A DNA stretch of 55,528 nucleotides, the filler included, from Sluysia triapertura (Eukaryota): assembly GCA_046118255.1 (NCBI GenBank). It is 4 parts of 4 records of this genome, joined end to end, with 100 filler letters (N's around TTAATTAATTAA, not from the genome) between each part and the next. Parts side by side here need not be neighbours in the genome. Positions count along the whole stretch, not along the records: positions 1 to 14,264 come from JBJNIA010001232.1; 3 more parts are not named here. One strand, 5' to 3'. Each line of letters begins with the position of its first letter. Within the stretch, counting starts at the first letter, position 1. A program made the position numbers and the translations under genes. Below are positions 439 to 51,107 of the stretch, piece after piece. The notes below the pieces were generated by a model that worked only from the letters and a program-made list of their open reading frames with translations, had not been told where the DNA came from and did not search any database.

Positions 439-1352
439 TGCTATGGTTTTCCTTCATGCTAAACCTACGGCAAAATAAAATTGATCAGGGTCGGTTACAG
501 TAAGCCTCTTACAACTAATAGTTGACACCTATGTATGTAAGTAAAGTAAAATCGTACTTAAATCTCTTGAGAATGTAACTTATAACACATTCTCATTATG
601 AGGGTCTTAGACCAATTCATCAGTAAATAAATAACAATATTTAACTTTTATTATTAACATAAAAACAGATTTAATATTATAATAAAGATAATATAATAAT
701 ATAATCAAAATTCCTTAAAATATTTGATTCAAATTGAAAGTTTAATAATCTAAAACTCCTCCCATTACATCGAGGATGAAAAGCAGTTAAATAAAATATT
801 TTAGAGTTTGATTTTAATAATTTTATCTTCTCAGAGAAGATAAAAATACCTTATAAAAAGCAAATTACTGTAGACATGGATGATAAAATAGAATTTCCAA
901 AATCCAGTTATGGTTTTTGAATTAAAAACCAAAACAGAATAGTTGAATAATTTTATATTAACTACAAAAGCGACTGTAAAAGCTATGTATCTGCAATACT
1001 AAAAAATCAAGTTGACTGACTGATTAATTGGTTGAATTATTAAATGGCTGACTAAATTTTAATGGTCGTATTATTAACTTACTGAATAAAATTAAATGGC
1101 GATTTTCATTAAAATGATGTAAGTTTATAAACTAGTCATCAGCCAGTGTAAATCGATGGAATGTTTTAGAACATTCTAGAAGTTTATATTCTATTTATAT
1201 AAGCAAATTTTATTTTTTAGAATTTCTATTTTCTTTTTTGAAAATAGATGTTTTTTTGGATATTTAGAAACTCTAAAATATTTTTTAAATTATTTAAAAC
1301 ATTTTAAATAATATTTTATGTAATTTTGGAGGTTCGTGATAGCTACCTAACA
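439..1352 (-). mobile_element. Solo LTR, family 1
   Basis: Reverse strand TGTTAGGT...AAAACCATAGCA; flanks TATG/CATG; homologous along its length to other copies. Confidence 0.8.
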
Positions 1353-1739: not shown

Positions 1740-2600
1740 TGTTAGGTCTGCCATCACGACCCTTTAAAATCTTATAAAATTTTTTAAAATTATTTATAAG
1801 TGTCAAAAAACACCTAAAAAATATTAATTTTCCAAAAAAGAAATTATATTTTTCCAAAAAAGAAAATAAGATTTCTAAAATAGAAAATAAGCTTCTAAAA
1901 ACAGATTCGAAGCATCTAGAATGTTCTAGAATATTTTAGAACATTCAATCGATTTTCATTGGATGATGACTAGAATATAAACTGGCATCTTACAATGAAA
2001 ATCGCCATTTAATTGATTCAGCCATTATAATCGTCGCCATCTTAATTCAGTTATTCAGCTCATTCAGTTTATTTGGTTTTCTACGCTTTTTGGGAATTTT
2101 ACATTCATTTGGAAGCAAATTCAAATCTATTTATCGAGCATTTTTACAAATCCATGCAAGGGTAAAATATTTTATTATTAAGGGGATTTTGGTTTTTTAA
2201 AATCAGAATCGTAAAATACAGGAAAAATCAATTGTATCATAAATTTTTGTAAGGACCCCAATATAGTGAGGGGAAATTTCATACTTAAAATCTTATTCAT
2301 TATTTGATCAAATATCCCAATAGGATTTTGTTCATAAAATACATTTTATTTCACTCTATTTTCCATTTTCATTTCGTCTTATTTGTAATATTTATTTTTG
2401 TATAAATAATAAATTTAACGAAGTTAATTGATTTTTATTTAATTATTGTGACATTTTAAGGCCCTCTAAACGAGTTAAGAGTAATATTAAGTAAAGTAAG
2501 AATTTTCACTTATAAGCTACAGAGGTGCCAACTATTAGTTGTAAGACGCTTACTGTAGCCGGACGCTGCTCAATTTTATTTTGCCGTAGGTTTAGTATTA
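1740..2600 (+). mobile_element. Solo LTR, family 1 (last bases missing)
   Basis: TGTTAGGTCTGCCATCACGACC start, HSE/TATA block, ...TTTTGCCGTAGGTTTAG end. Confidence 0.8.
1908..1981 (+). promoter_or_regulatory. Heat-shock-element array plus TATA box in family 1 LTR
   Basis: cGAAg cATCt aGAAt gTTCt aGAAt aTTTt aGAAc aTTCa, then TATAAA at 1976. Confidence 0.6.
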
Positions 2601-2982
2601 TGATCTATTTTTATCTATTATGGAATATTTTTCGGCAATTTTAATTAGTGAAATAATTTTTAAATGAATTTCAATATATAACTTCGTTTATTTTATTTAC
2701 TTATAATTTATTATTACTGGCTATAACTATTTTTAAAAAAAGTATATTTAAAACTATTTGTTTCAATATTTATGTTTCAATAAATCATAAAGTATATGAA
2801 TTTTTAAAAATTTATTCACTTAATAAATAGCATGTTTGTATTTTATTTTTAACAAACGATTTCGTTTATGGTGGGTTTAATCGAAAAAAAGTTATTTAAT
2901 TATTAGGCAAATTTATATTTTGGTTTTTATCGTGTTTGAAAATTATATATTTGAATAATTTGTATTATTAATAAAAAAAATT

Positions 2983-3397
2983 ATGATTCGACCAAAGGTC
3001 CTTACATCAACCCTTAATCATTTTATTGGTTCTGGCGTTGATTCTGTTATTTTATTTAATCAAGAAGGAATTTTATTATCACATTCGACTATAAAAACAT
3101 GTGCAGAGAAAATGCGATCTGCAATAGCTGCTAATATTTGGAATATATATCAGAGGCATTTAGAAAACATACAGGCAGTACTCATATTTTTAATATTTGT
3201 GACGCTTTTAGGATGATCAAATACAAGAACTATTGCTGGAATTTGATGATGGGAAAGTTGGTATTGTTAAAGTTGAAAATTCTTTGCTCTGCCTTTGTGG
3301 ATCTAAAGATTCCGATTTTGGATTAATTAGAACAAAAATGAATAATTTAACTAGAATTTTAGCTGAGCCCTTATCAAAATTAACTGCTTTTACTTAA
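2983..3397 (+). CDS. LAMTOR2: Ragulator complex subunit LAMTOR2 (Roadblock/LC7 fold), 2 exons: 2983-3177 + 3212-3397, 126 aa
   Basis: MIRPKVLT start and AIAANIWNIY motif; removing the 34-nt GT..AG intron 3178-3211 gives DDQIQELLLEFDDGKVGIVKVENSLLCLCGSKDSDFGLIRTKMNNLTRILAEPLSKLTAFT*, colinear with the known LAMTOR2 C-terminus (LLC...FG..K.K...L...LEEPL). Confidence 0.93.
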
Positions 3398-4636
3398 TTT
3401 TGTGATAAATGAAAGTTTGATTTTCAACATTGTTCTTACTTTATAATTTTTAGTAATGATTTTAATTACAGTTACACAGTAATTAAATCTACTTAGTTTA
3501 TTCTGCTTAAGTTAGTAAATGTGTTATTCTTTGTACAGCACATTATTGGGCGTTTCAGTGTGTTAAGCTTCTGAGATTAAACAATTAATATCTAATCTAC
3601 GTGTGGTATGTTTTTTGTTGAAGTATTAATTTCAGTTGAGTGGAGTTTTCAGAAGCAAAGATTATGTAAGCATATAAGTCCAACGAACAATTATTTTAGA
3701 CAATGCTTTATCTAGTTTATTTTAATCAGTGTTTGAAGATTAATTGAAGTTCTAAGTCTAATGTGATTACGAATAACCTTGAAGATATTTTTATAAAACA
3801 ACAATTGAACTACATAAATATGCATTTATATAAGTTTTGAATTAATACTTTGTAAATTTTTCTGTTTTACCTTCGTAAATTGTATTGCCGTCATTAATGC
3901 TTTATTTAAGCAGTTATCGTTTAAATCAAGTGATAATAATTTTAAAATGCAAATGTTTAAGTATGTATAATGATAGTTATGAACTAATATTTGCAAATTT
4001 ATTCATCTAATAGTAAAAATTGTCAAGTTTTTTCACTAAACTTTGTAATATGGCTTACCTTTGATAATTTAAATTGAAATAAATTAAAATTACGATTATT
4101 TTTTTATAGGTGAATTTAATATTATAAAGTTCAAAATAACTTGAATAATAGAAAACATTTAATTAATGAATTAATTAAATGATTGTATTTGGGAATATGA
4201 ATTCATGATCTTTTAGTATTGATTCAATCAAAATTTTAAAGTCACGAAAATATGAGTTTCTTTCGAATCTACATAACCAAAGTATATAATGATTTAAGAT
4301 TGTTAATCAGTAACATCAATTTCGCCACTTGTCCATTATGTTAAACTCACTATGTTTTATAAACTAATCATTTCGAAATATAAATGAGTTTTATACTAAA
4401 ATCATAATCTTAATTAATCCTCTACAGGTCTAGCAAAAACACAAAGTTTTCACAACAAACTCAAAAAAAACATAGTCATATCGAATTTAAATTATTTATT
4501 TATTAATTTAATGACGTTTTTATTATATTTATGTAAAAATTGCAATGTCGAGGTTGCTCCGACAGTAAACCGCAAAGGGTTATTTAAAAAAATAATGAAC
4601 TGCATTTTAACAATTGTTAAAAATCTTTAATTAAGG

Positions 4637-5371
4637 TGCTGTAGTTTTTCTTATTCCTAACCTACGGCAAAATATGTTTTGAGCAGGCTCTGGTTACAGT
4701 AAACGTCTTATGTCGTAAAGAGGATGTTTCAGTAACAATATGAGCTAATAATTTATCTAAATTTAGATGTTAAATGACTAGGGTCTCACAATATATCTAT
4801 ATAACAACACAAAAATATCAAATTTATCTAAAATTCAAAATTTTAACGACGATAGTACCAAGATAAAGAATACAAAAATAATTATTTTATGGATTAAAGC
4901 TCCGTCAGCATTTAATCTAATACTAAAATAATTTGAGTTGATTTTAACCCTCAATATATCGGTGATTTAAAAACTTTACAAAATAATATAAAATTTACCT
5001 GTAATGTAAAATTTCAACTTCAAAAATTGAAATTGACCCTACAAATATATAATTTACCAAACAATGGATTTTCAAGTTTTGAATAACTGTGAATTGTGAA
5101 TCGTTACTAAAATTTCACAATTCCTCGTATTGCAGCAAATTGAAATGGGGATGATAAAATGGCGATTTTCATTAAACTGATGTTAGCCAATGAAAATCGA
5201 AAAATAATTTTCTTTTTGGAAAACGATTATTTTTAAAGTGATTTTAAAGATTAATAAATAGTTCTGAAGCATTGTATATGATTTTCATTGATTTTTAAAT
5301 AGTTTTAAATAAAATCTAAAGTGTTATTGACATTTTACATTATTTTACAGGATTGTGATGACAACCTAACA
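4637..5371 (-). mobile_element. Solo LTR, family 1, internally deleted
   Basis: TG...CA termini with perfect AAGG target-site duplication. Confidence 0.87.
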
Positions 5372-8739: not shown

Positions 8740-9880
8740 TTGGATGAAAGCATTTCGAATATTTGCTGCTTCCAGCTCAGTTCATATTAGGATCGGACCA
8801 CAAGCCGCTGTTACACATTTTCAACATGAAGAATCCAACACCCAGGTAACAACGGCACATCAGTTACCTTTCCCAATTCAATTTCCATATTGAATACATT
8901 CCGGGACAAGAAAACGTGGTCGCGGATGCTTTATCCCGTGTAGAAATCAACAGCATAGACTTTCTACCTATGTTTACTGTTGAGGATTTACAAAAAAATC
9001 CACTTACAAGTCCAGATATTTCCAAATTCAGCTCCACGCCAGTATTGCGTGAGGGAATTTATTTTGACTTCCAGTTATCAGGTATATCTCGCCCAGTTTT
9101 AGGCCAACAGCTTAGATTTCGAGCTTTCCAATATATACACAACATTACTCACTGTGCAGCTAAGGCCACATATGAAGTCCTACGCTCCAAAGTGATTTGG
9201 CCATCAATGCACAAAGATATCAAACTCTGGTGTAAAGCTTGTTTGATATGCCAATCTGTGAAAGTTCACAAACATATCAAATCAGGACCACTTCATTTCC
9301 AAACTGGTCACTTATTCGAAACTATTCATATGGACATTGTCGGTCCATTACCACAATCTCGCGGCTACACATACTTGTTAACAATTATAGACCGACATAG
9401 TCGTTGGCCAGAAGTGTTCCCAATCAGAAATATAACTTCGGAGACTATTTCTAAAATCCTAGTTTCAAACTAGATTTCTCGCTTCGGAGTTCCTAAAAGG
9501 ATTATAACAGATCAAGGAGCTCAATTCGAGTCTAGTCTATTCAATAATTTAATACACCAACTGGGCAGTACTGGGCATACCACCCGCAATCAAACGGTAT
9601 GACAGAGAGGTTTCACCGCACCCTCAAAAACTCCTTGCGTACATTGTCAATACATCATAACTAGGTTGACGCACAACTTTTAATACTTTTAGGTTGGCGT
9701 AATATACCACATACTTCAACTGGATGTTCGCCAGCTCAGATAGTCCTAGGCACCAACACAAGGTTATCATTCGAACTATTCGAGTCTAATAATCCTACCA
9801 AAAAACTATATTCACCTCTTTTACGAGATTATTTCAACGAACTGGACAAAACACCTCGTCACAACAACAGCTCCATTAAT
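8740..9880 (+). pseudogene. Ty3/Gypsy pol fragment: RNase H end plus integrase (disrupted)
   Basis: SDHKPL, IEYIPG.ENVVADALSR, zinc-binding H...H...C..C, IHMDIVGPLPQS.GY.YLLTIIDR.SRWP, ITDQGAQFES, HPQSNG..ERFHRTLK; in-frame stops (e.g. 9471) and frameshifts. Confidence 0.93.
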
Positions 9881-9889
9881 TTTCGCGAA

Positions 9890-10823
9890 TGAGCTTGTTA
9901 ACACAAATAATGAAACTATCCCGTTGCGAATATTAAATTATTCAAATTCTAATGTAATATTAAGAAAAGGAACTAATGTTAACCTTTATTACCTACAGAA
10001 TCAGTTAAAGATCCAGTGAAAAATATCAAACAAATAAATCAAATTGATATTCAATTTTTAACACTGGAACAAAACTAGATATTGATGAAATTGTTTAATA
10101 AATTTCAGGTCGTTTTTCGTAAAAATGAAACCGACTCAGGACGAACAAATATAATAAAACATTATATACGTTTTACTGACAAAAAGCCTATAAAACAAAA
10201 ACCATATAGATTACCTTATGCTCTTACAGACGAAGTTACCAAACAAATTGATGATATGAAACAGAATAATGTGATACGACGTAGGTTTTCTCCATGGGCT
10301 TCTCCGATAGTTTTGGTAAAAAAGAAAGATGGAAAATTCAGATTTTGTGTTGATTATAGAAAATTAAATAATTTAACAAAAAAAGATACATTCCCATTAC
10401 CGCGAATTGATGAAATGCTAGATAAATTCAATAATTCTACCTTTTTTTACGTCTATAGATTTGAAAACAGGTTATTGGCAGATTGAAATTGCTGAAGATA
10501 AATTTAAAACAGCATTTACTACACATAATGAATTGTTTGAGTTTAACGTTCTTCCTTTTGGATTAACGGGAGGTCCAGCATCATTTCAGAGATGCATGTC
10601 ACACACATTGATGGATGTGACACACGATATGGTATATATTGATATTCTTATTTATTCAGTATCATTCGAAGATATAGCACAAGTTTTGCAACGTCTTGAA
10701 ATTGCGGGACTGAAGATTAAACCTAGTAAGTGTGAATGGGCCAAAGCTAGTGTAACATTTTTAGGACATGTTGTATCAAAACAAGGTATCCAACATCCAA
10801 AAATTCACATAATACGTATTTAA
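9890..10823 (+). pseudogene. Ty3/Gypsy reverse transcriptase fragment (frameshifted)
   Basis: PIKQKPYRLP, SPWASPIVLVKKKDG..RFCVDYRKLN, FPLPRIDEML, GYWQI, KTAF, PFGL, degenerate YIDD (YID-IL), KPSKC, FLGHVVS. Confidence 0.94.
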
Positions 10824-12187
10824 CAACGTCTGATCACTCTCTTTGTTAAGGTACAATTACGATATAAATTTGGTTATAATACTGACCTATCAAGATATCT
10901 ACAAATGCAGCTAAAGTATATGTAAATCACTTAAAGTAAAGTATATAAAGTATAAGAATTTTCAACCTAATCCTCTTTGCACTGTTGCCACGTTGGTCGC
11001 TGTTATTCTTTGTAGTGAATTGTATTTTAGCGTATAACTCACATATATTTGTCTAATAGCATTTTTTAACGAATTTTATAAAATGCATTGAGGTAAAAGG
11101 TACTTTTTTATATCGTTATTCTTTAGGCATACTTCACGTTACTTATAGATACGCTGTATACTGCAAGCGGACTCTAAATGTTAATTTATTTTGCTGTTTT
11201 AGGCAAAAAAACCCAGCACAATGTAGCACCATTAAGCCGCAATTATTGTTGTTCAAAGTGCTTAAATAATTTTTGTTAATGCATAAATTAAAATAATGAA
11301 AAATGTTTTTGATCACAATTCTTTCACATGTATGCGGCAGCCAGTTCCTGTTTTAAAAATAGGGCTGTAGCCTCAGAATATTGCTTAATTAACGGTGTTG
11401 ATTAGCGGCTGAATTATACATCCAATTCAAATAGCATTCATGTTTTCGAGGTTAGGCAACTTTAAATATTAGCCAAGAAAAAAGTAAAAGAAACTTCAAT
11501 CCTGTATGTGCAATAAAACAATTTCTGTTTGATTTTCCAATATCATTAAGTAATCACAAAGCGACAGTAATTCAAAAAGTAACAGTTCATTGGAAGCATT
11601 TTTATAAGTATTAGAAGTTACTTGACTCTACTTAAGAAAAGCAACACTGATGTTCTATAATTTCTGCGTCAATTCCGTATTTGACATTCAAACTCACATT
11701 TTAGCTCAAATGTAAAACCTAATTGATATTGTGTTGTTTTTATCACATACTTTTCATTAATACGAATAAAATTTACTCATTTTTACGGTCAAAAAATCCG
11801 ATTTTCACTTAAAATCGAATCAACTTCTGAGATTGAGCTAATTTTGACTAAATATCGAAATTAGTTCTAATCACGTTACTCTAATTTTAAATCAACTAAA
11901 ATACATTTCTCTTTAGATGATTACCTCACGTTCATTTAGCACTAATTTAATTGTTAAATATCCAAAATAAATTAAAACTTTTGTACAAATAATAAATACA
12001 TCAAATATTTGACTTCGCCACTCTGAATGATTCAGCAACTTAGAAAACACTCCGGATATTATATTTAAAAATTAATTCTAAAAAATAATTGTATTTCATA
12101 TACAAATTGAAAACACCGATACTTCAATTTACTGTGGAATTTTTCAAAGTTAATTTACAATTCATAACATTTGATTGTACAAAACTT

Positions 12188-13499: not shown

Positions 13500-14264
13500 T
13501 TTAACAAAGAATTTAAGTATTTGATAAAATCTACACTAGCAAAATAGTTAAAATGTGAGTTCGCCTATAATAAGTGACTCATAAAGTGAAATAGGCAACC
13601 ATACAAGATTTTTATTTAAAGTTAAAATTTCTAAATTTAAACGTGATGGTCGATTGTTTTAACCTTAATCTCTTTGTGTAACGTAAGATTTTAGTGTCTA
13701 ATAGTCACCTAACTAAATATTTATTTAAATTTTTATCTATCTACGCTAAAACTGTGACTTGTTAGATCAATTTAATAATGAACCACTTGAATTTATATTC
13801 TTCCAAAAATATGCTATATATATATATGTGCTAGTATTTCCTTATACTTAAGCAAATTATCTGATGAGTCGGTCCGCCTAATATATACGCTTTACACCAA
13901 AATTGGAGACGTATTATTAGGATTTACTATAATTTTTATACTTAGTACTTACCTAACACCTTAACTTACAGGTAATTAATTTATTAATTAAATTAATTCA
14001 AATTTTATGTATGTTTTACGCAACCCTTTTTATGGTGTTGCTTTTGAAAAAATATTTCTTATGAATTTAGAAATTACGCAACCCTTTTTATGGTGTTGCT
14101 TGTTGAAAATTATTTTAAATTAATTAATAACTCTATATGTGATACACAAATTTATTAAATGTACACTTAGAACTTGATACAACTTTGTAAAAATATAATA
14201 TAAATAGTGATTTTATTTAAGCTATTCAACCGTAGTTGATACTTTTGGATTTTAGGATGAAGTT
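13500..14264 (-). mobile_element. Family 4-like LTR, cut by the gap; lower bound approximate
   Basis: Same order of motifs as 15646-16610; homologous to 17560-17690 plus 18911-19251. Confidence 0.6.
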
Positions 14265-14364: not shown

Positions 14365-14867
14365 TTTAACAGATAAAACCTTGTAAAGGCTTATTTCTTC
14401 GTATTTTTCATTATTTTATCTTGATTTAAGTATTTTATATGATTATCCTACTATTACAGTTCATCATAATACCTTATCTTAGTTCTTTAATAAAGTTCAA
14501 CTTATTCTGTTATCCTAAGTTTTGACCCTTATATCAACCCATATCCTTCACTAATCCCAACAATTATATTAAGATCTAACTAAGATACATAAAACTATAC
14601 GTTTCTATACAAATATTATCCACATTATTTTTACAGCGTTGGTCTTGATTATTTTTTAAGCTTTTTAATATCAGTTGACATATGCGACGATTTTGTCTGT
14701 TATTTTTTAAGTTAAGCAAATAGTGTTTTACACAGTTAGTTTTGAGAATTGCTCTCTCGTTATTTTACAGGTACGCCATTAGTAAGTGGTATACTGTAAA
14801 CGGACTCAGAATAATAATAGTTTACTTTGCTGCGATTTAGGTTTTGTGTATTAAGAAAACATCAACA
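14365..14867 (+). mobile_element. LTR family 2, 3' part
   Basis: TTTACAGGTACGCCATTAGTAAGT..CTGTAAACGGACTC..AAAACATCAACA; homologous to 21150-21405. Confidence 0.65.
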
Positions 14868-15647: not shown

Positions 15648-16610
15648 TGGGTGGTTTTAAGATAAGATAGAATAAAATAAGATTTTTAACGCGAGTCCAC
15701 CAACGTACTAGGCTTACCAGTTAGGGATAGCCGTTGGATTTATAACTTCTTCAAGTGTAAATTTAATTGGATGCTCTTAATTTTATAATTTTGCTATTAA
15801 TTCAGAATTTAAATACTTATCTGTTAAATTTCTGGAGGTATTTTAATAAATGTGAGTCAATGCAAGATGTAAATAACATATGAAAAACTGAAATTTAATG
15901 TTATTAAATTAAAAATATTATTAAGAGTAGTTTACATAGATCTGTAATAATTGATTAAATAAAGCAAAATGTCGATAGTACAATTAGCTATAATAAAATC
16001 AATAAATCTTTTAATCAATTAAAGAAAATACAATCATGTTAAAATATATTCCAAAATGTGTGTTATATGAAAAGAAATCACCTCTATAATAATTTTAGAA
16101 TTTAATTCTAATAGGAGAAATCTCTACTTTAGTTTAGATTTTATATTTGAAACTATAAAAGTGCAAGACAATTTCCTTATGTGCAAAATGGATCTGGAGT
16201 CCGTCCGACTAACTAGGCACGATTTATATCAAAAGATGACGTCCTAATTAGATTTTCAAAGGAGATTTTGAACAAAGTTTAAAGGATCAACTAAGTGACT
16301 TAGACTAACTATTATAATACGATAAATAAGTAAAAGGAAAGTCTTAACTTACTCAGTTAAACCAGCCTTTTTACGGTCTGGTCAAGATAGAAAAATTTTA
16401 GGCGTTAAACCAGCCTTTTTACGGTCTGGCCAAAATAGGAAGATTTTAAACAAATACTTAAAATAACTAATCAAAATCTTATTACTAGATCAAAAATATT
16501 CAATGGCAATATTTAGAATAATAAAAATATTCAATTTAAATCTTAAGCCTACTTGCTTAGATTGAAATAATTTTATTAAGATTTTAAGTCAGCCTTTTTA
16601 CGGTCTGACA
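15646..16610 (-). mobile_element. Solo LTR, family 4
   Basis: Reverse strand TGTCAGACC...AAAACCACCCACA; three terminal-type hairpins, TATA hairpin and 3' stem-loop; TSD not evident (abuts a microsatellite). Confidence 0.65.
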
Positions 16611-17559: not shown

Positions 17560-18763
17560 ACTTTAAAATCTTATTCTTAACTGCAAATTATCCGAGGAGT
17601 CGGTTCGCCTAATATATACGATTTATACCACTACTGGAAACGTACTATTAGGTTTTCTTAATTCAATTATGCTTAATTAACTTTTACTTATGTGGAATTT
17701 CGTAGTTAAATAATTAAATTAAATTAAGATTTATCTTAAATGTGAGTCCTCTATGACACTGGACTTATTCACTTAAGGGTCAATACATAGATTTTTTGCA
17801 GCTTTAAAGAAAGATAAATACTGGAGGTTTCTTGGCTTATAATATCTTTGATCCTTATAAAATATTATGTCGAAATGCTAACGAAATAACTTGTTGAGTA
17901 ACTTATTAGATAATTACAATACAATTCTAACAAATAACTCGATGGTTAACTTATGCGATAGTTATATGACGTTAATTTATTTGTTTCAATTTTACTCTCT
18001 TTAATATTAAGGGAAAAGTATCTTTTTCCAAAAATTATTTATTAAGTAGTATTAGCTATTAATAATAATAAATTAACAACACCAAAAGTTTATTTAAATA
18101 AATTGTAGCAGTAATAAATACAAAATATTTATAGATAAAATGGTCAATTCGACAACTATACATAAAGTTTAAAATAAATTAAAATGGTAACCCTATGGGT
18201 ATAAAAATGTTTATGCGAATAAAGGCCAAAGTATGTATGTACTTACCAATTTAATTAATAAATTTATATATAACGTAATATATAAAATGTTGAAATTATT
18301 AATTTGTAATTAATATTTACTGATTTGAAGTTTAAAAGCCTTAATTTATATTGTATTGAAACTATACAGATTTATAAACAAGATATCTTAAGTGTAATTT
18401 ATGATCGATATAAATTCTTTAACTTAGAAATAGTAATGCACTAACGATTGTTATAACAATGAATTAGTTTTTATCTTCTTGAAAGTTTATGATTTCTTCA
18501 AAAAGAATTTCAAATATCTTCTAGATAGTTTATAATTTTTTGATGATTTAAAATCTTCTTCAAATTAAACAATAAAATTACAACACTGTAAAAGCAAAGT
18601 ATAAATAATGTATAAACAATGTGTCTAAATTTTGTGAATAACTTGTAGTTTATATACTATTTCTAAGTTTACCAAGAATTGGTTGGTATAGTAACATATC
18701 TGTTTTAAGTAATAAATTTAAACAATAATAATAATAAATTTTTATTAATTTATTTTAAATGTT

Positions 18764-18802: not shown

Positions 18803-19251
18803 TTTTTAATAATTTTAAACATTTATTTATTTTAATAATTTGATATATAAATACTAAATAATTTTAAATATTTTAATATTTTAACTAATTTATCTAAAAA
18901 TACCTTTACACTTGTGACTTATGTCTTATCTTCTATGTTTAATCACTTGGAGCACTCTAATTAATTTATGCTACAACCCTTTACTAGGTGTTATTTAATT
19001 GAGCTTTTATATTTATAATTATGCAACCCGTATTAAGGTGTTGCTTTACAGAAGGAATTTTAAATTAATAACACAAAACCAAAAAAATCGTAAAGATCCT
19101 TAAAGTGTATTAATAACACACGAGTAAAAATCAACTCTTACAAAGAATTAAAACTTATAATAAAAATAATATTTTAATCAGCTACTCATATTGGTTGTTA
19201 GTTTTCAAATATTTTAGAATGAGTTTTTGCAACCCGTATTAAGGTGTTGCA
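17560..19251 (-). mobile_element. Family 4-like LTR 5' part, split by the family 3 insertion
   Basis: Starts TGCAACACC at 19251; TATA hairpin at 17608-17652. Confidence 0.6.
17691..18910 (-). mobile_element. Solo LTR, family 3 (1.2 kb), nested in a family 4 LTR
   Basis: TG...CA termini, flanks CTTA/CTTG; inverted homolog of 31162-32374 over its full length. Confidence 0.8.
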
Positions 19252-19779: not shown

Positions 19780-20314
19780 ACACATTCTACGCGGATTAAA
19801 AACTTTCAATAAACATTGGGAATCATTAGCTCGGAACTATTTTTCAATCCATGCAACAAGTAATTTGTTTTTATTAAGACTAATATTTGATTTGCCTAAG
19901 AAAGCAAATATTATAAAATCTACGTAAAATCATCTTTCGCGTAATTTAGTCTTAAGGTTCCCCGATATATTGAGGGATAAATTCTAGTGTAAACTGATAT
20001 TTATTAGTTATTAAAGACTAATCGAAGTTTTAATAATAAATTTCACACTTCCTTTTATTCTATCACCTTTGTTTTGTACTATAATTCAAGTTGTATAAAT
20101 TTTTAATTCGTTAATAAAAAGTTTTGCTAGTTGTTTGTGAATTTATTAGACCCTCTAGTTATAAGAGTATAAATTTAACTTACTTTATGTAGTTTAACTT
20201 ATTTTGTTACTGAGGTGCCTTCTTTACGACGTAAGACGCTTATTGTAAACGGACCCTGCTCAATTTTCTATTTTGCCGTAGGTTTAAACTCAAATATTAA
20301 TAAAAACCACAGCA
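19780..20314 (+). mobile_element. Family 1 LTR, 3' part
   Basis: AAGGTTCCCCGATATATTGAGGG, TAAGACGCTTA..GGACCCTGCTC..TTTTGCCGTAGG, AAAAACCACAGCA end. Confidence 0.75.
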
Positions 20315-20878: not shown

Positions 20879-21052
20879 TGTAGTGTTGGGATTGCCATAC
20901 TGTGTATTGGAAAATGCATGAGAAACATATAGAACTATAAAACGAAGAAAGAACTGATACCAAATGATGGATTGAGCGTTGTAGGCAGAGTTGAAATGAG
21001 AGTCGTAAAAATTAATGCATTTACGGTAATTTTAACAGCTACAGAATACCCT

Positions 21053-21149: not shown

Positions 21150-21405
21150 TATAATAATTCAAATATCTCTTAAGCTAGCTTTGGTCTTAATTAGTTTTTT
21201 AAGTTATCTGTTGTTAATTGACAAACGACGATTTTTGCCACTTATTATTAAGTTAAGGCAAAGCATATTTTTGTACGATTAATTTTGATAATTGTCTTTA
21301 CGTAATTTTACAGGTACGCCATTAGTAAGTAGTATACTGTAAACAGACTCATAATAATTAATTATTTTGCTGTAGGTGAGGTTTTTAGATTAGAAAAACA
21401 CCCAG
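21150..21405 (+). mobile_element. LTR family 2, 3' part
   Basis: Colinear with 14630-14867. Confidence 0.65.
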
Positions 21406-25299: not shown

Positions 25300-28200
25300 N
25301 NNNNNNNNNNNNNNNNNNNNNNNNNNNNNNNNNNNNNNNNNNNTTAATTAATTAANNNNNNNNNNNNNNNNNNNNNNNNNNNNNNNNNNNNNNNNNNNNG
25401 AGCCTGGTTTTGTCTTTTATACTCTTACTTTAACTTTACCAATTTCTAACCCAACAATAAAACAAATTCGGAATCTCGATATATTCTTTAATAAAATCAG
25501 AATTATACAATGAAAATTCTTTTATAATAATACACCTCTATTATACAAATAAAATACATTATTCTTTAATAAGAAAACATCTTTTATTATTACCTTCAAA
25601 ATTATAAATCTTTTAATATTAAAAAACTGCAGCCAGGGTTGACGCCCGCATTAATTAAAATATAATGGATATTTTAATTAAGCCTATTTTTAATCGGTTG
25701 TTAAATTTCACTCCTCTACAAATCAATCGAGGCATTGTCCCTAAAGCTAAAAAGTTTGCAATTTCGTTACTGTCTTTCTCTACTCTTGTCTCATTGTTTG
25801 TTTCTTATTTTCTACAAAAATATGACTACTTTACCATCATTTGGGAAATGTAAATTGGAAATTGGACAAGACAGAAATTAAAACACTTCATTCTTTTTAA
25901 GCCGACCAATTTTACTGATTAAATTTCGACGGCAATTTCCGTCTCTGCCCGATTTCATTATCTTTTTAATTATCTACAGATAATAGGACTTGTGGTAAAC
26001 AATCCCTAATCTTTTCAACATCATTAAATTAAAATTTAATATCATTATTGTTGGTGTTTTATTTTATATATAACTACAAAAACAATTATAACAATTTATA
26101 TTTCGGGTCCGCCTGTAATTTGCGATGTATTTGGTGAAGAAGACAAAATTACAGATTTTACTTACAGGAATAATTCCACGAAAAGTTCTATTAAGTTCTT
26201 TTTTTGCAATTAGTCAATGAGGGTCTTTTTATTTTCTTCAAATTGATTCCTTGAAATTATTAGTTTTGTTACTTTAATTTTCAGTTAATTGCTTATTAAT
26301 ATCTTGCTACTTAACTATCTAATCTGAACTTTAATGAATTTAGATATTTGTTCTTAATATTATTCTTAATTTTCTTTAATTGTAGTTTACAAATCTTTTA
26401 TTCATTTCTATCAATCGAATAATAAAACAACTAAGTAACGACACTTTATTACAACACAGAAAGACGTAAATAACGAAATAAATGAATGTGTACTAATTTA
26501 CCAAAATCAGGGAGTTTATACGTTAAATCACAATAACATATAAATAAATAAAAATAAAGGAATAACTCCTGAATTTCTTTGTAGTTTAATTGAAATTAAA
26601 TTAAACCAGGTGAATACTTGGTTTTTTAAAATTATTATGATATATTGCGTAATATATTAACGCTAAGATTATCAAAGCTTTTCCTTAATATTTATTAACT
26701 TACGTGTACAATATTCAAAATCCGAGAAAATAGTTTGATGATATAATCGTATAAATTGCCGAGTTATCTCCACCAGATTGTCAGGACGTATTCAAAGAAA
26801 GCTGACTATGTAACAATATATAAATGACCAAATCGAATTGAAAATAAAATTAATGGTATAATAAATTTATTTTTCTATGGGGATATTTTGTATAGTACAT
26901 TGCACGCCAAGTTTAATAAATATTTCAATTTAAAATATATTTTAATTATACTTAAACATCGGAACATATTTAACTTTAATTTTAAATTATAAAAACTAAT
27001 TAAAATAACTCATTTTTACCTTATCTACGTCGATGTGCTTCGTAATACTTCATGATTAAAAATACTAATAAAACTCATAATTATACACTAAATATGATAC
27101 TATTGTATCACCAAATTATTAAATTAAACAAATATTATTTAATGACATATGCATTTTGATTTTTACTATATGATTTAATTGTTCTTCTAAAGATTAAAAT
27201 TATTGTTCATAAAGTTTTGATATTAATGCATGCAATATTTCTTTTTGTTTATATTGTACCAATTTTGAATTTTAATTTACAGCATTCATGTAAATTGTTT
27301 AAGCTAAATATTATAATAAAATTAATCAGGAATTGCTTGTGTAAAGGAAAATACAACAAGTAGAATAAAGTGTAAAGATAATTTATTAATTTTATATATA
27401 ATTATAATTTTTGTAAATAATTAAAAATATATTAATTTAATAGTATTAATAAATGTATATAATTTGTTTATTTTAATAAAAGTTTTTAATTTATTACTTC
27501 AAATATATTTGTATTTTATTGTTAATCAGAAATAATTAATTATTATTTAAAGACGGTCAGACCAATAAAACCAACAAATAAACAGAAATTATCGCTTTTT
27601 TATAGTATTAGAATAATAACTTTTTTATAAAAATAAAATTCTCACTAAACGGAACATATTGTAATAAATAAATAAATGAACATGTATAAATAAAAATTTA
27701 TCTTAAAACACTCGCAACTTAAAAGAGTCTCAACGAGTTCTTATACATTATTTTTTATCAATTTCTGCATCGGTTAATTTTGGAGAAAATATCAAAATAT
27801 TTTTGAGAAATAACGACAAATTTGCTACAATTTAATTCTAAACAAATTCATCCGTCAAACCGTCAGTTTCTACAGATTGACAAAATTAATTTAACCACAA
27901 CGCATACAATAAGATCCTTCATACAACAAATTAATTATTCTTTTGGATTATTGTACATGTAAGTTGATAATTTGTAGGTTTTGCGCTTTAACAAATTTAG
28001 CGTCAAACTATTACTTAAACTATCGAAATTTTAAAAACCAAGTATTAGTTTAAATAATTAAATTAAAATTCAAATAAAGAAAATTAGCAATTTTCTCTAT
28101 TTTTAATTATTTATTTGATATATTATAATTATAAACTTTTGCCTTATAACTATTTATGTGCTACATTTCTTTAATAATGTTTTGTATATAATAAAGTTTT

Positions 28201-30539
28201 GTGTTATATTTCTTTAATTTTTGACAGTTTAAAACTTGAAACGATAAATTTAGTCTATCAGATTTAAAAGATATTTTTCAAAGTAAATTTAAAGAACAAA
28301 GATAACTTGATAACCTTTAAGATAATATAGAAACCTTTAAGTTATATAGAAAAACATAGTTAAAAGATTACTGCATTATCAATCGCCTAAAAAGACTAGA
28401 ATACAGGGTTGACTATTTAACAAAAATATCCTTGATAAAATTCTTTGCCACGTCAGTGTAGGTAAGCTTTACTTATTACAGAGAAAACTTTTAGAAGTCA
28501 GTTCTGTAGTTGCGTCTTCTTCAAGACATAAACCACAATATACAGACGAACCCGGTGACAATAATATTTACGGCTACGACTACTTAATTTTTATTCATAG
28601 ACGATCCCGAAATTGAAGAAGTTAGTACTATAAAAGTGGATTTTAAAACTCGTAAGAATACATTACTAAAAGAATAAAATTTATATTTGATGATCCTACT
28701 ATTTTAGTTGCCTATTCTTAACTTACTTTCTGGTACTTATACAGAATTTTCTTCTAAATGATACATCATTTATTTCAAATTTGAATTAGTCCACCAATAG
28801 AATATAATTATAATTAAGTTAAAGTAACATGTTCATCATCTTTGCAAAAAGAAATGCTTTCCACAGAAATATGTAAAACTTTATTATCAAAACCAAGTCA
28901 GCATCAAATTAATCGTATTCATCAAAATTCCATTTTATTTAAAAATGAAATTCGTATTATATTTTAGCAGACTATTATGCTAATATATCTTTAGCAGTTA
29001 CGGATTTATTTAGGCATTACCGAAAGAACATCTTAATATGAACAGTAATTGAAAAATTTTATTATTTGATGAAATTAAATCATATCAACTTGATAAGAAT
29101 TTGAAATCTTACGAAGGTACTTTTGCCGATCTAGATAAATGGTTACAGGAAGGAAATCGAATCGATGACAATGTTCGCGATAAATTATATAATGTATTCA
29201 AATGATTCGAATGATATTGCAAAGATTAGTGAAGAGCAGGAAGGAAATCAAGTCGATGACAATATTCGTGACGAACTGGTTAACGCGATATTCATAAGAA
29301 TTAATGCTTTTTCTTTTTACTGTTAATAACAACCTTTATATTTATTGTTTTCACAATTTGAGTATCCAAACGAACCATAGCTTCATTATTATTGTTGTTG
29401 AACTTAATACCACACCAATGTTATTAATTAATTTAATAAATAATAGTTAATATATCAAAATGTATTTGGTGTATGATCTTAACATGTTTTATAATAATTA
29501 ATGATGAAATAAGACAATCCAAGGAATTAATATTAAAACTAAATTATATTTTAATCTTTAGTGTGCGAATGTTATACATATGTATATCTAACATTTAAAT
29601 TAATGGTAAAATAGACACATGTTATATAAAATTTTTTATTAATCACTATAGTAATATTTTTCATGAATAAAAAATCGTAGGATTGTTCATAAAAATGGTT
29701 TAAGTAGGCGCACAATTTTAATATTAACTGGAATTTTATGAATAAAAATGAAATTAAACGTCATTGATTTTAGTAGAAGAAAGATGGCACCTAGAGCACT
29801 TACTGAAGGTGATTATTGACATGTTAACTTCTACAGAGATTGCCTTAAGAAAATGAAGCTAATGCCATTTATCATTATATCGAAATCAAGATCAACGTTA
29901 TTAATTAAAAAAATCCTGAAACTGGCTCATAAACTTTATTAAATATTATTTTGCCTAAATGGTTCATCCAACTCGAAACAACAATAAAAAACAATTTACA
30001 GCATTTAATAATTAATGAATTGAAACAAAAAATTAAAATTATAAAAATTTAAAACAGCTCCCAATATGTATCTTCTCCACCAAAATTAGGAGGTATGTTA
30101 TCTAATAAAATATCACTCGTAACAAATAGTTCGAAGAAAGGATCAGTAACGATTTCAATCAAAACATTCTTACTTCTTAGGAAGAATTTCAAATGTACAA
30201 AAATGCCTTTATAAATCGCAACAAGTTCATATTATATCTATTTCAAAATTCACAAAACATTCAATTACTTGTCCAAATTGATAATCACAATCCATTATTT
30301 ATTTTTCGCCACTTATTATTATACCAGATGTGTCACTGAATGAAATAGTTTTTAAAATGGGAGTATTAAGCAAAGAATATTGAAATTAGTTTTTAAAAAA
30401 TTACCAAATTTGAATAATAGATAACTCCACTTTTTCCATAATCCATTAAAACAACAAATGATCCACTACCCATCTTGGACAATGAGTACCAAAATGTTTC
30501 TAATAAATGATATCTTTCCATTAGAATATTGACCTAATA

Positions 30540-31161: not shown

Positions 31162-32374
31162 TGTAAAGGTATTTTTAGATAAAATTGATTAGTATTTTAT
31201 TAAATTTAGTAGTATTTGAAATTATCATAAATATATAAATATTAAATATATATAAAAATTATTATAGTTATAAATAAAATCATTATATTAAAATAAATAT
31301 TTAAAATTATTAAAAATTTATTATTATTATTATTATTAAAACATTTAAAATTATTAAATTATTAAAAAATTTATTATTATTATTATTGAAGCATTTAAAA
31401 TTATTTATTGTATGTTACTATAACAACCAATTGTTGGTAAACTTAGAAATGATATATAAACTACAAATTGTTTTCACGTTATTTATGCATTGCTTTCACA
31501 TTGTCGTAATTTTATTGAAGAAGATTTTTATTCATCAAAAAATTATAAACTATCAAGAAGATAATTGAAATTATTTTGAAGAAATTATAAACTCTCCAGA
31601 AGATAAAAAACTAATTCATTGTTATAGCAATCGTTAGTGCATTACTATTTCTAAGTTAAAGAATTTATATCTATAAAATACACTTAAAGTATCTTGTTCA
31701 TAATTCTGTGTAATTTCATATACAATATAAGTTAAAGTTTTTTAAACTCCAAATTAGTAAATATTAATTATAAATTAATATTTTCAACATTTTATATATT
31801 AAGTTATATGTAAATTTATTAATTAAATCAGTAATTACATACTTACTTTAGCCTTTATTTGTATAACATTTTTATACCCATCGGGTTATTATTTTAATTT
31901 ATTTTAAACCTTTTTGTATAGTTGTCGAATTGATCATTTTATTTATAAATATTTTGTACTTATTAAGTTATTACTGCATACAATTTATTTAAATAAACTT
32001 TTGGTGTTATTAATTTATTATTAATAACTAATACTTGTTAATAAATAATTTTTGGAAAAAGATACGTTTTCCTTAATATTAAAGAGAGTAAAATTTAAAC
32101 AAATAAATTAAGGTCGTATAACTATCGCATAAGTTAATCATAGAGTTGTTTGTTAGAATTGTATTGTATCTGATAAGTTACTTAATAAGTTATTTCATTA
32201 GCATTTCGACTTAATATTTTATAAGGATCAAAGATATTATAAGCAAGGAACCTCTTTCTTTAAAGCTGCAAAAAATCTATATACTGGCCCTTAAGTGAAT
32301 AAGTCTAGTATCATAGAGGACTCACGTTAAGATAAGTCTTAACTTAATTTAATTACTTGACAAAAATTCCCACA
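31162..32374 (+). mobile_element. Solo LTR, family 3
   Basis: TGTAAAGG...TTCCCACA, flanks CTAT/ATAT. Confidence 0.8.
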
Positions 32375-32899: not shown

Positions 32900-33056
32900 A
32901 AATATAAACATATACCTCCAATCTTATTTTTCTTAAGCTGCAAATCTATATGCTGGTCCTTCAATAAGTAAGTCCAGTATCATAGAGAACTTAGGATAAG
33001 AATAAGGCATCAAATTTAAATCAACTATCTATCTTTAATTATCCTGAATCTCCACA
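32900..33056 (+). mobile_element. Family 3-like LTR 3' end
   Basis: AAGCTGCAAATCTATATGCTGGTCC..TAAGTCCAGTATCATAGAG..CTCCACA. Confidence 0.6.
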
Positions 33057-34451: not shown

Positions 34452-34540
34452 TGTGAAAATTTGCTGCTTTTTGCTTATACATCTTACGTGAGTCCTCTAT
34501 GACACTGGGCCTACGCAGTCAAGGGTCAATAAATATCGAA
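34452..34540 (-). mobile_element. Family 3-like LTR 3' end (full extent unknown)
   Basis: GTGAGTCCTCTATGACACTGG..AAGGGTCAATA near-identical to 17742-17785. Confidence 0.55.
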
Positions 34541-35780: not shown

Positions 35781-36675
35781 TGTTAGGTTGCCATCACAAC
35801 CCTACAAAATAGTTTTATGACGACATAATAACGCCTTAAAATTATTTAAAACTATTTAAAATTACGAAAAAATTATTTAAAACCATAAAAGATATTCTAT
35901 AATTAATTAAAATTAATTAAAACAATTATTTTCCTAAAAGAAATTTTATTTACCTAAAAAGAAAATTGGCTTCTATAAATAGCATAGAAGCTTCTAGAAT
36001 GTTTTAGAACATCCCATCGATTTTCATTGGATGATGGCTAGTATATAAATGAGCATCAATACAATGAAAATCGCCATTCGAAAAAATTGCTATTTTCAAG
36101 TCAGCCATTTTAAAAATCTGTGTTAAGTCACCATTTTAACAAATTCTGTTAAGATTCAGACCATACCAATCGCGGCAGCATTATTATCGGATTTTCAACA
36201 AATTTCTTCCATGATTCAAATAATTTGTTTTTATTACGATTGATATTAATTTCATTTAAGGAAATTAATATCCTAAAATCAACTGAAAATCAATTTCTAA
36301 TAATTTTATTTTTAAGGTTCCCCGACATATTAAGGGGTAAAATACACTGTAAATTAATAATTAAAGTTAATAAATACTCTTAGGAGTTTTAATATTCAAA
36401 TCACAAAATTTGTCTTTAGTCTTGATTTTTTTATTTCTTATTATATATTTTAACTTAGCCATTTAATTTATATAATTTTTTAAATAAAATTTTGTAGTTG
36501 TTTGAAAATTCATTTAGAATTTGTTGACCCTCTAACTATAAGATTAAAGGTTCAATTTATTTTGTTTCGTTTAACTTATTTTGTTGCAGAGGTAAGATGC
36601 TTACTGCAACTGAACCCTGCTCGATTTTTTATTTTGACGTAGGTTTCGACTTAAATTTTAATAAAAACCACAGCA
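35781..36675 (+). mobile_element. Solo LTR, family 1
   Basis: TGTTAGGTTGCCATCACAACC...AAAAACCACAGCA; no clear TSD. Confidence 0.82.
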
Positions 36676-38502: not shown

Positions 38503-38775
38503 TGCAAAAACTAAAAACTATGTGCGAATAAAGCGACTTAAAAAATATAAGAAGTGAGTCCACCAACGTATTGGACTTACAAACCTAATGGCCAACCGTN
38601 NNNNNNNNNNNNNNNNNNNNNNNNNNNNNNNNNNNNNNNNNNNTTAATTAATTAANNNNNNNNNNNNNNNNNNNNNNNNNNNNNNNNNNNNNNNNNNNNA
38701 AGTCCAATACGTTGGTGGACTCACTTCTTATATTTTTTAAGTCGCTTTATTCGCATATAGTTTTTAGTTTTTGCA
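38503..38775. repeat. Inverted pair of near-identical LTR 3' ends flanking an assembly gap
   Basis: 38503-38578 is the reverse complement of 38700-38775 with about one mismatch. Confidence 0.85.
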
Positions 38776-42690: not shown

Positions 42691-42985
42691 TGTTTTGGTT
42701 TTTTCTAACACTTAACCTATGGCAAAATATTTTTGACAATGTCCGGCTACAGCAAACGTTTTACAACTTATAGTCGGCGTTTTTACAACTAAATAAGTTA
42801 ATAGTTACCTTAATATTAATATTATTAAAAGTTAAAACTTACAATCAAATTTAATGTTTGAAGGTCTATATTCAAAAATACAAATTATATCAATTATATT
42901 TTTAGAAGCTAATTTTCTTTTTTAGAAAAAAATTATTTTTCAATTGATTTTAAATAATTTTAAAGAGTTTATGTGATTTTAGGCT
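42691..42985 (-). mobile_element. Family 1 LTR, deleted copy
   Basis: aacctatggcaaaata..tccggctacagcaaacgttttacaact matches the family 3' motif. Confidence 0.65.
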
Positions 42986-46130: not shown

Positions 46131-49100
46131 TGTTGGAATTCGATTTAATGTTTAGTGATTATCTATTTTAATTCGACAATAAAATATAATTATCTGATTT
46201 TTTATGCAAGGATTCTTTGTGAGAAATGTGATTGCTTTAAGAAATGTGATTCACGTAAGTTTCTTACAATATTAGTCTTATACACTTAAGGGCTAAGTTG
46301 TAAGTAGCAAACAAAAATTAGTTAATGGAGGTTAACAGTTATTTTAAATGTCTAATGAATTATAATATTTTTGAAGGGTAATGTCAATATAATGATCAAA
46401 ACTGTTTTAAGAAATAAAGAATTTACTTGGCAATTAGATTTTTGGTGGATTGCAACTATTTTTGTAGAGTAATAATGTTTTACTCGAAAATTTTTTAAAT
46501 AGATAATGAATTTACAAAATTTTTTTATTAAAAACGGTTTTAATTGATTTTACTACAGATAAAATCAGTTTCTACTTTTATAAAAATTTTAGTAAGTTTA
46601 AGTGTATATGTTGCTACCGAATATAAAATCGGTGTCTTATAAACTAAATAACTAATAAAGTTCTGAAATTATATTATATCAATTGTTATGAAATACAGGA
46701 AAAGATTTACAATTCAGTTATTATAATAGAAATAAAAATGAATAGATTATATAATCTTTTGGGATATTAAAGGTTATTTTACTGGATATTTAAAAATATC
46801 TGTTTTTAAATTAATTATTAAAATTTAGTAGAATTTACTATTCTTTTAAAAACGAATTAAAACTTGTACAAAAATTAACTAACGAATACAAGTAGTAGAT
46901 CTCAAATTATTTCTGAAGGACTACAATATATTTCTTAAATAATAATCAAGTTTTCTCCAAAGATTATAATATGTTTCTTCAATACTTCTTTGATAAATAT
47001 TTATAAAAAAATTACTGAATTTTTGTGTGTTCACTACTTTAAATCTGACTTTAACATTTGTTTTGCGTTGGTTAATTATAAGAAATTTATTTTAAATTTA
47101 ACAAAAATTATTTTATTTTATAATTTTAAAATTATATTTTAATATATATAATAATAATATAACACTGCACAAAATTAAAATTCTATTTATAAATTTATTG
47201 ATTTAAAATTTTATTCATAGTTAATCTATAATTTGTAATCTATTTGTAATTTGACATAAATTTGACTGAAATTATAACTTGACATATAATAAGAGATAAA
47301 AATAATTTCTTTTCGAAGCATAATTTATTAATGTATAAATAAATAAACTTAGTAATAAAATTTATAGGCTCGACAAAGGTGTTATGAATTTTTGAGACCT
47401 TTTTAAGACTTGAAAAATTTTAAAGATTTTTGTTTTAAAAGGAAAGTAAACATAAAATTAAGTTAAAAACAAAGTTAAAGTTAAAGTTAAAGTCAAAGAT
47501 AAAGTTAATATTAAATATTAACCAATAAATTCTTTAATAAGTTTAACAAAAGAAAATTTTTTTGGAACCTTAATAGGGTTGGGTCAACACGGAAAATTTA
47601 TAAAGAGATTCGAAATAAGAGTTTTTATACTGAAAGCTTTAAGAAAATAAATATTTAAATATTCCTCAATCTTGGGATTGCAAGAAGTCACCCAATATTT
47701 TAAGATACTACAATTCCTTTATAATTTCACAAAATTATAGATATTTATAAAAAATATTATGCTTGTTAATTTTCTCTAAAATAAAATGTAGCATTGTTTT
47801 AAAATAGGGGCTGCAAAATAACAGTATCCCATTCCTTAACACTAAACGGACCAATGACCGATCAAAACAATATGAAATTGTATTGTTTTTTACCATTTTA
47901 TAATATGACTCTTAATTTTATATATAGGTACCGGTCAAATTACCGTTGAATTTAAAATTTCCTTCGATATCACATTTCATTTGAATCAATTCTTCAAAAA
48001 ATATAACTTGTACTTCATTTATTTTCATCGTTAATCCATATTAAATTTAAATGGCTAGACAGATTGACAGTAACGAAAATCGAGGTGTGATTTATCAATA
48101 ACTAAATCATAAACCGATGAGTTTGTTAAATCTAAAGAATACAATAATCACATTTAATAAATAATTTGTATTTGTATTGCAATTGAATTTTTTTAAAAAT
48201 CTAAAAATTTGAACGATTGAATTAACAAATCAATAAGGTATACAACAGAATAAAACTTTAAAGATCTGATATTAACAAAATTCAAGTATCATTTTCCAAG
48301 AGATAACTTATAAATTAAATATTTAAACTTGATGCAGTAATCGGCGAAGAAAGAACTCAGGTAGTAATTCTCGAACTAATTGAATAAGTATTTTAATAAT
48401 AATAATACTTATTCTTTTTAGTCATATTTATTATGTAAGAAGTTACAGTGTTATTTATAAATAGGAAAAACAAATGAATATTGAAATTTTGCATATGAAT
48501 AAGATCATGAAATAAGTACATTGATGCAAATGCAAATGTCAAGACCATATTGTTATTGTTATTAATGTGATTGAAGTTTTTGTTATTGTTTGAAAATAAA
48601 TTTGTTGCACATCGAATATTAATTGTCTGAGTACATGTCATAGAATTATTCAAGACCTGCAATATCATATATTTAATAGAAAAACAAATATGTAATTTTG
48701 TTTGATTCTGATAGGATGGCAAAATTACACGAAATTATAAAATTGTGTAAGTTGCTTTGGATGTTTAATTTATTATTATAAAGACATACGAAAAATAGGT
48801 TAGTTGTGTTTTCTGTATTAAGTTGTCTACGAATATTTAAAATAAGTGCATAATTTAATCTAATTAAAATTGAAAGGAAATATAACTCGTTCGTGTTGAT
48901 AGTTTCATTACAGAACTTATTACTTAATGTTTAGATTAAAATATATTTTAATAATAAATTTCAGTCCAGATTTCTTTCAATCTGAATACCAAATACAGTA
49001 TGATAAAATTCATTATTCTTTAAAATTATTTTTGGTTTACAATTTTCAAAGTTATCAATTTCGCGTTTTGAAAGTTTATACTCTAAAAAGTACAAACACA

Positions 49101-50283: not shown

Positions 50284-51107
50284 TGTTAGTTTGTTATCAC
50301 GACCCTCTAAAATCATATGAAATACTCTAAAATTATTTATAAGTCTTTAAAATCACTTTAAAATGTTTATTTTCCAGAAAAGAAATTTAAAATTTCTAAA
50401 AAAGAAAATTCGCATCTAAAAATAGAATAGAAGCTACTGGAATGTTCTAGAGCATTCCATCGATTCCTATCGACTGATGACTTTATATAAACTAGCATCA
50501 GTTTAATGAAAATTTTTCAGTTTCTATCCACTATTTTAAAATTTTCAATTTCAATTACATTTCAGTCGCCATTACGAATATTCTTAGGATATTTTGGATT
50601 CTGGGGAAAAATCATTTCAGGAGCTGTTCATGTCCATGTTCTATAAGTTATTTTTATTAAGGTAGATACTCATAGTAAAATATTAGTATCATAAAATCAG
50701 GTGAATATTTAGTAAGTTTCGCCGATATATTGAGGGTTAAAATATACGTAAAATTATCATAAATACAATTAAAGACTCGTGATGGTTTTAATTTTAATAA
50801 TTTTATATTTTTTTATTGCTGCTTAACTTCTAATTTTCTTTATTCTTATAATACTTTTTGATAACACAGTATTGTTAATTATTATTAAAATTGTGCTTTA
50901 ATATAAATTTGTGAATTTATTAGTTCTTATTTTAGATTTAATAAACTACCATTAGATCAGTTAGTAGATCCGAATGTTATGATTAAAGTTAAAGTATTTA
51001 TTAACTGTTCAAGCTACAGAAACGCCCAATGTACGTTGTAAGTCGTTTGCTGTAACTGGATCCTACTCAAAAATATTTTTCCGTAGGTTAAGTGTTAGAA
51101 AAACCAC

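Follow-up and report, generated by a model that had tools for sequence, protein, structure and literature searches.

LTRs and hairpin copies in the window

The window, by which we mean the whole 55,528-nt stretch of DNA analysed, consists of four AT-rich stretches (22-27% GC) of the 619-Mb genome of Sluysia triapertura. Near its start lies a solo LTR of a Lys-primed family (1740..2603, plus strand) that begins TGTTAGG; the terminal ~20 nt that in its relatives run up to the CA are absent from the window copy. The relatives share 85-95% identity and have LTRs of 790-845 nt, and the twenty recovered with the 3' end of this LTR are 92-95% identical there, all ending ...CA. Two of the four solo LTRs of this family with both ends located have a 4-bp target duplication. 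Another member, locus L008, runs on into a PBS. Apparent terminal inverted repeats at 456-688 and 2377-2598 are in fact a pair of oppositely oriented LTRs from related families.

Downstream of such PBSs lies a gag gene with a CCHC knuckle, followed by a class III fusion glycoprotein (PF24664) and then by protease, RT, RNase H and integrase. Lys-primed elements with the order LTR-PBS, gag, gB-like env and pol were found at G000:C31603 (L120+L168) and C62311 (L127), and gag and env were found in a Met-primed element (L137). Judged by gene order and domains, the elements whose LTRs bear the motif are GAG-ENV-POL Ty3/gypsy errantiviruses. This order is known from errantiviruses of Nematoda, Bryozoa and Platyhelminthes (PMC13524379), and those with a gB-type env share the succession of gag, class III fusion glycoprotein and pol found here. 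The parts of that paper covered here describe no RNA structure. Among the flatworm rows of the master table in its supplement file 2, the PBS type is unassigned for eight of nine flatworm elements. A gag-region query matched at 109 of 179 junctions, and many of the rest are cut by contig ends. Related gag genes thus stand behind the PBSs of the diverged families, which makes the families homologous at the hairpin position, as the sequence-only reading had supposed.

The motif shared by these LTRs is a bulged hairpin. Its lower stem P1 has 6-7 bp and is followed by one bulge (mostly A), a 5-bp P2 with a G-C top pair, and a second bulge. Above this bulge, a Y-R pair closes a segment made up of C, 4-14 nt of free loop and UAA, the last unpaired. 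The window holds about 24 copies, some of them partial, rather than the roughly 17 counted earlier. The tally combines 19 profile matches at E<0.1 (13 of them the seeds), two weak profile copies (13555-13596 and 11147) and three additions from the structure scan (16199-16251 minus, 26103-26154 minus and 28503-28555 plus). Run by itself, the structure scan lacks specificity: it gave 26 matches in the window, and six shuffled windows gave 6-18. The P1 and P2 arms cited in the sequence-only reading were all located, with the first copy beginning at 2517 instead of 2518. The features are as follows.

473..539, minus: degenerate copy, in an LTR of opposite orientation (profile search)
1740..2603, plus: solo LTR of the Lys-primed family
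2517..2558, plus: first hairpin copy, P1 2517-2522/2553-2558, P2 2523-2527/2547-2551
2528/2545, plus: Y:R pair of the first copy
A2552, 2546, C2529, 2530-2541 and 2542-2544, plus: non-helical parts of the first copy (two bulges, the C, the variable loop and the unpaired TAA)
2561..2568, plus: PAS-like site of the first copy, GGACGCTG, complementary to primer tRNA T-arm nt 49-56; position 5 differs from that of most relatives
2578..2584, plus: 5' arm of a U5-IR-like helix, placed from L008 of the same family (7 bp); the window copy lacks the partner arm, made up in relatives of the LTR end and the PBS spacer
4685..4735, minus: copy, Lys-type family (profile and structure scan)
11147..11176, plus: partial copy, 3' half plus site (profile E 1.9)
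13555..13596, minus: degenerate copy with site GAACTCAC (profile E 0.46)
13868..13921, minus: copy of TC/TAAA type (structure scan)
14765..14809, plus: copy, short-loop family (structure scan)
15691..15737, minus: copy, Met-type family (structure scan)
16199..16251, minus: copy beyond those listed in the sequence-only reading (structure scan)
17599..17652, minus: copy of TAAA type (structure scan)
17742..17791, minus: copy, Met-type family (structure scan)
20207..20258, plus: copy, Lys-type family (structure scan)
21308..21352, plus: copy, short-loop family (structure scan)
26103..26154, minus: new copy (structure scan)
28503..28555, plus: new copy (structure scan)
32276..32325, plus: copy, Met-type family (structure scan)
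32945..32994, plus: copy, Met-type family (structure scan)
34480..34535, minus: copy with degenerate 5' arm (profile search)
36585..36631, plus: copy with part of the loop deleted (profile search)
38554..38599, minus: copy truncated by the end of a stretch (profile search)
38700..38737, plus: partial copy at the start of a stretch (profile search)
42737..42789, minus: copy, Lys-type family (structure scan)
46255..46304, minus: copy, Met-type family (structure scan)
51014..51065, plus: copy, Lys-type family (structure scan)

Covariation of the hairpin

Seventeen window copies were aligned by sequence alone before pairs were counted. The predicted partners pair in 88.4% of stem cells, compared with 28-44% for slid partners and 68% for shuffled partners, and none of 500 shuffles reached 88.4%. 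Two-sided changes occur in 10 of the 12 pairs. A wider set of 114 hairpins from 173 junctions, reduced to 34 families, is mixed, partly motif-selected and chosen throughout on pairing score; in it, arms of the same family form 11.9 of 13 pairs, against 8.1 when arms are exchanged among families. The 12 highest values of corrected mutual information among 252 column pairs correspond to 12 of the 13 predicted pairs, and the thirteenth is a nearly invariant G-C. Mapped on a gag tree (29 rows with the hairpin), 65 changes are common to both partners, compared with 24-31 for slid partners, so covariation persists when phylogeny is taken into account. The proposal of a covarying stem-loop near the LTR 3' end is therefore well founded: pairing lies far above the controls and the tree-based check agrees. 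Together with the homology across families, this covariation also bears out the view of a selected RNA element at that position.

G-U pairs outnumber A-C about 3:1 in the stems, which favours the sense strand. Folding energies of single copies on the motif strand are mostly no better than those of shuffles (z from +0.2 to -2.2), and the evidence is therefore covariation, not stability.

The unpaired letters were found to be less uniform than the near-fixed CC, TAAG and GGAC described before; they are conserved, but truly read Y-C, TAAR and GRAC. CC/TAAG alternates with TC/TAAA among copies, and Y tracks R in 105 of 108 (C:G 67, T:A 34, T:G 4, other 3). The first C, previously taken as unpaired, thus pairs with the last base of TAAG, as C-G or T-A. 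The suggested pairing of CC with GG would be C:A in 26 of the 108 copies; as Y pairs with the R of TAAR and not with the second base of GGAC, this pseudoknot fails. Two readings of the letters as DNA or RNA signals were also discarded. A U1 splice-donor reading of G-TAAG meets TAAA in about half of the families, mostly without a preceding G, and a TATA or poly(A) reading of TAAA is at odds with the last base, which has Y as its partner and in half of the families is G.

The hairpin matched none of the Rfam 15 models, with E limits of 5 for the window and 10 for eight loci. The absence of any ribozyme match agrees with the poor fit to hammerhead, HDV, twister and pistol seen by eye. By this comparative evidence the hairpin is a structured RNA element without a catalogue entry. 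In the window, Rfam recognised only a tRNA-like piece (20381-20452, minus strand, 40.6 bits; not called by ARAGORN, with a second copy at 24597-24737), plus chance matches below threshold. Short repeated hairpin units, GCAACCC...GGTGTTGC, lie at 14016-14130 and 18966-19281 and are unrelated to the LTR hairpin.

Primer tRNAs and the adjoining 8-nt site

The junctions fall into two PBS classes, Met and Lys, and each PBS is the exact 3' complement of a genomic tRNA. The Met class matches an elongator tRNA-Met(CAT) gene (L115). The Lys class matches a tRNA-Lys(TTT) with the T-stem TTGGG, found as six 5'-truncated pieces; a search of the genome for a full tRNA-Lys gene with this stem found none. 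The six pieces (L108, L112, L116-L119) have a common 3' flank, four begin at the same anticodon-stem base, and long open frames without a Pfam match lie nearby, possibly those of a tRNA-targeting element. The first tRNA-Lys matches (L105-L107, T-stem CAGGG) were rejected, as they mismatch the PBS and sit on GC-richer contigs. These contigs carry tRNA gene clusters, and together with many foreign-looking GC-rich matches they suggest that DNA from another animal may be present in the assembly. A search for a third primer class, which covered a single spacing and those PBSs whose fifth letter is G, gave 95 matches versus 47 in the control, the excess being mutated Met and Lys PBSs.

In five Met junctions (L109, L110, L111, L113 and L114) the LTR minus strand is joined to nt 39-76 of tRNA-Met, and the extended PBSs all stop within 2 nt of one place. 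These fusions are a direct trace of priming. We take them as likely products of read-through of m1A58 up to the modified A37.

The letters GGAC open a site of 8 nt that is complementary to nt 49-56, in the T-arm, of the tRNA from which the element itself is primed. Its consensus is G-R-A-C-T-C-A-C in Met-primed and G-R-A-C-C-C in Lys-primed families. The site lies in the 3' part of the LTR and mostly starts 53-74 nt upstream of the PBS, which fits the 35-60 nt from the CA end noted earlier once a 5-8 nt spacer is subtracted. Because the first searches had required TAAR and GRAC, a fresh sample was drawn on the PBS alone (406 junctions, 0 in the reversed control); the first 100 were taken, of which 96 were long enough and four too short. 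With the site ignored in the search, the hairpin score of 53 of the 96 exceeds the 99th percentile of 288 shuffles, and GRAC follows within 0-2 nt in 44 of these 53. The remaining 43 junctions are without a hairpin above threshold, many of them decayed.

Among the 53 junctions, position 1 of the site is G in 50 and position 3 is A in 52. Position 2 is a purine in all 53, with G and A both present in both classes; G or A but never a pyrimidine is what pairing with U55 predicts. The Met class forms on average 7.6 of 8 pairs with tRNA-Met nt 49-56, having T at position 5 in 29 of 31 (opposite A52), A at position 7 in 28 and C at position 8 in 28. The Lys class averages 6.8 of 8 pairs with tRNA-Lys and has C at position 5 in 17 of 22 (opposite G52). 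It drifts at positions 6-8, where the tRNA match is 72%, 72% and 44% in a set that includes motif-selected copies. Mismatches inside the site also occur in four Met families (L282, L284, L236 and L234). A free window search found 8 pairs in 42 of 63 Met junctions versus 2.8 in shuffles; for Lys, at least 7 pairs were found in 12 of 37 versus 5.9, little above chance. Mean duplex energies with the own and the other tRNA are -7.0 and -5.1 kcal/mol for Met and -7.5 and -3.6 kcal/mol for Lys. The hairpin loop was compared with the D-arm and anticodon arm of tRNA-Met, and its complementarity is no better than that of shuffles.

A second helix, resembling U5-IR, pairs the 3' part of the LTR with the LTR end and PBS spacer and places the site beside the PBS. 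It averages 7.2 bp versus 5.0 in shuffles, and reaches at least 8 bp in 16 of 34 families versus 3% of shuffles. In some Met families it is weak or absent.

A gag tree (36 rows, 195 columns, fragmentary; FastTree and quick IQ-TREE) needs three primer changes, two of them forced by strong branches, though a tree with all Lys families in one clade is not rejected by an AU test (p 0.087). One supported gag clade holds both Met- and Lys-primed families, and within it position 5 of the site is C in Lys families and T in five of six Met families. Independent primer contrasts, whose direction at position 5 is the predicted one, number two on well-supported branches and three on the best tree; a sign test is not significant, and with so few contrasts significance is out of reach.

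The module is missing from a distant Met-primed lineage, and the statement that all LTR families carry it was too broad. Seven junctions, read by eye, have neither hairpin nor site (L210, L218, L225, L249, L254, L286 and L288; gag 31-37% identical to the queries where matched), and three of them sit on a long outgroup branch. Met priming therefore does not need the module. The lineage forms a natural control group.

Possible functions of hairpin and site

Its position directly before letters complementary to the T-arm makes the hairpin a likely component of a primer-activation device, of the kind proposed for HIV-1. We consider it probable, from the sequence comparisons above, that hairpin and site form one module for primer activation in reverse transcription. 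Binding of the primer tRNA by the site is the surer component and seems quite likely; that the hairpin serves initiation is an even call, its fixed adjacency being the sole tie to the site. Of the roles listed in the sequence-only reading, the priming signal alone has evidence, and a catalytic fold is unsupported.

In tRNA-free RNA, positions 4-8 of the site would pair with positions 12-16 of the PBS. Annealing of the 3' 18 nt of the tRNA to the PBS would free both the site and the 5' strand of the T-stem, and these could then pair as G-C56, R-U55, A-U54 and C-G53, followed by four family-specific pairs. Such pairing would prevent the T-arm from closing, with the U5-IR-like helix holding the parts in proximity. 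As the least secure step, the hairpin may stack on the new helix at its C56 end, and its UAA bulge with the conserved G-C and Y-R pairs might be a docking place for reverse transcriptase or the Gag nucleocapsid. We tentatively speculate that, in these invertebrate errantiviruses, the UAA-bulged hairpin recruits RT while the site pries open the T-arm and co-evolves with primer switches.

A stem with a 1-nt bulge, one pair, a 3-nt UAA bulge and a free apical loop is a typical architecture of protein-binding hairpins. The site could thus be a PAS and the hairpin have a separate job (packaging, dimerisation, control of polyadenylation or a TAR-like protein site), the two being adjacent as U5 is short. 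The lack of tRNA complementarity in the hairpin loop suits this division, as do several copies that retain the site without the hairpin, though these may reflect decay. We nevertheless regard it as unlikely, given that hairpin and site stand 0-2 nt apart in all families and that the lineage without one part is without both.

Positions 4-8 of the site face the PBS as well as they face the tRNA, PBS letters 12-16 repeating the T-stem strand, and predicted folds pair site and PBS in 23 of 30 families. The site might then be a PBS-masking switch that pairs solely with PBS positions 12-16 in its own RNA, with GRA kept for a protein. This is improbable, as it leaves unexplained the purine-only position 2 and the A at position 3, which mismatch the PBS and match U55 and U54. 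In a set that includes motif-selected copies, positions 2 and 3 pair with the PBS in 0% and 2% of Met and 46% and 2% of Lys cases, and with the tRNA in 98-100%. The PBS-masked form is likely, as modelled, the tRNA-free state and compatible with a PAS.

Display of GRAC(T/C) at the hairpin foot as an m6A methylation site appears rather improbable too. In the parts of PMC13594981 covered, planarian m6A follows DRAYW/DRACW and is depleted from 5' UTRs, which counts against a site here, though the host may not be a planarian. GRACH fits DRACH, and the Met class also fits DRAYW, a planarian consensus that may not be the host's. Position 1, however, is G in 50 of 53 rather than A/G/U, 17 of 22 Lys copies break the planarian DRAYW by carrying C where W is required, and in Met families the letters at positions 6-8 track the tRNA.

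A self-cleaving ribozyme or a CC:GG pseudoknot is highly improbable: it could draw on unpaired conserved nucleotides, strong covariation and a G-Y-C...U-A-A-R-N-C string that recalls the twister P4 loop, but Rfam gave no match at the E values stated above, Y covaries with the R of TAAR and not with site position 2 (so that an HDV P1.1-like CC:GG fails), the single unbranched stem has too few fixed bases, and cutting within U5 would sever the template.

The putative primer-activation module most resembles the HIV-1 PAS and its HIV-2 equivalent, in which 8 nt lying 5' of the PBS likewise complement the TΨC arm (PMC3185550; PMC5066621; PMC1865047). The PAS tolerates G-U pairs, as does the site here, and adapts on primer change (PMC3185550; PMC5066621). 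The module differs in its host element, an invertebrate Ty3/gypsy, in a site that adjoins the base of a bulged, covarying hairpin, in masking that is predicted to come from the PBS itself and not from a downstream leader strand, and in a modelled register that reaches C56. Rous/avian sarcoma virus combines the same T-arm contact, from U5 to TΨC, with a helix beside the PBS, the U5-IR stem (PMC3185550, PMC3601003), whereas the primers here are Met and Lys and an extra conserved hairpin lies upstream. The Ty1 boxes, the bipartite PBS of Ty3 and the 3' PBS of Drosophila Gypsy also make extra contacts with the tRNA T-arm, using a short 5' PBS and a second site placed either downstream or at the 3' end of the RNA (PMC3592414, PMC5371799, PMC1635307); the full 18-nt PBS with an upstream site seen here is instead a retroviral layout. 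An LTR-wide motif survey gives SIRs, AATAAA and TATA and mentions U5-IR in the portions covered (PMC3601003). Our literature search, with subscription journals mostly outside its coverage, found neither this hairpin nor a PAS reported for invertebrate errantiviruses. As far as sequence comparison goes, the hairpin and an 8-nt site that matches the primer tRNA T-arm appear to be new, the PAS-type contact itself being already known.

If the module acts as proposed, PAS-type initiation would be older than, or separate in origin from, vertebrate retroviruses. The grip of the HIV-1 PAS on the T-arm is disputed, since mutations there also disturb folding, according to the parts of PMC3185550 covered. 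Dozens of diverged families with two primers form a compensatory series of natural origin in which, among other changes, G and A alternate opposite U55, and the T-arm grip is therefore testable with natural RNA fragments and swapped tRNAs. The module is also a searchable marker for LTRs that are otherwise unalignable.

Other reading frames were noticed in and outside the window. A Roadblock/LC7 (LAMTOR2-like) gene with an apparent intron of ~40 nt lies at 2983-3398 on the plus strand (Pfam E 1.5e-4, first exon). The regions 8850-10823 (plus), 20618-21031 (minus) and 23669-24625 (plus) contain broken gypsy integrase/RT pieces of two elements and a Tc1-type transposase piece, as well as frames resembling Tigger/pogo transposase, one of which was tested and had no Pfam match. 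Outside the window, a frame encoding an Unkempt-like CCCH zinc finger (L136:2331-2942, minus strand) follows a Met PBS and gag at a distance of ~2 kb.
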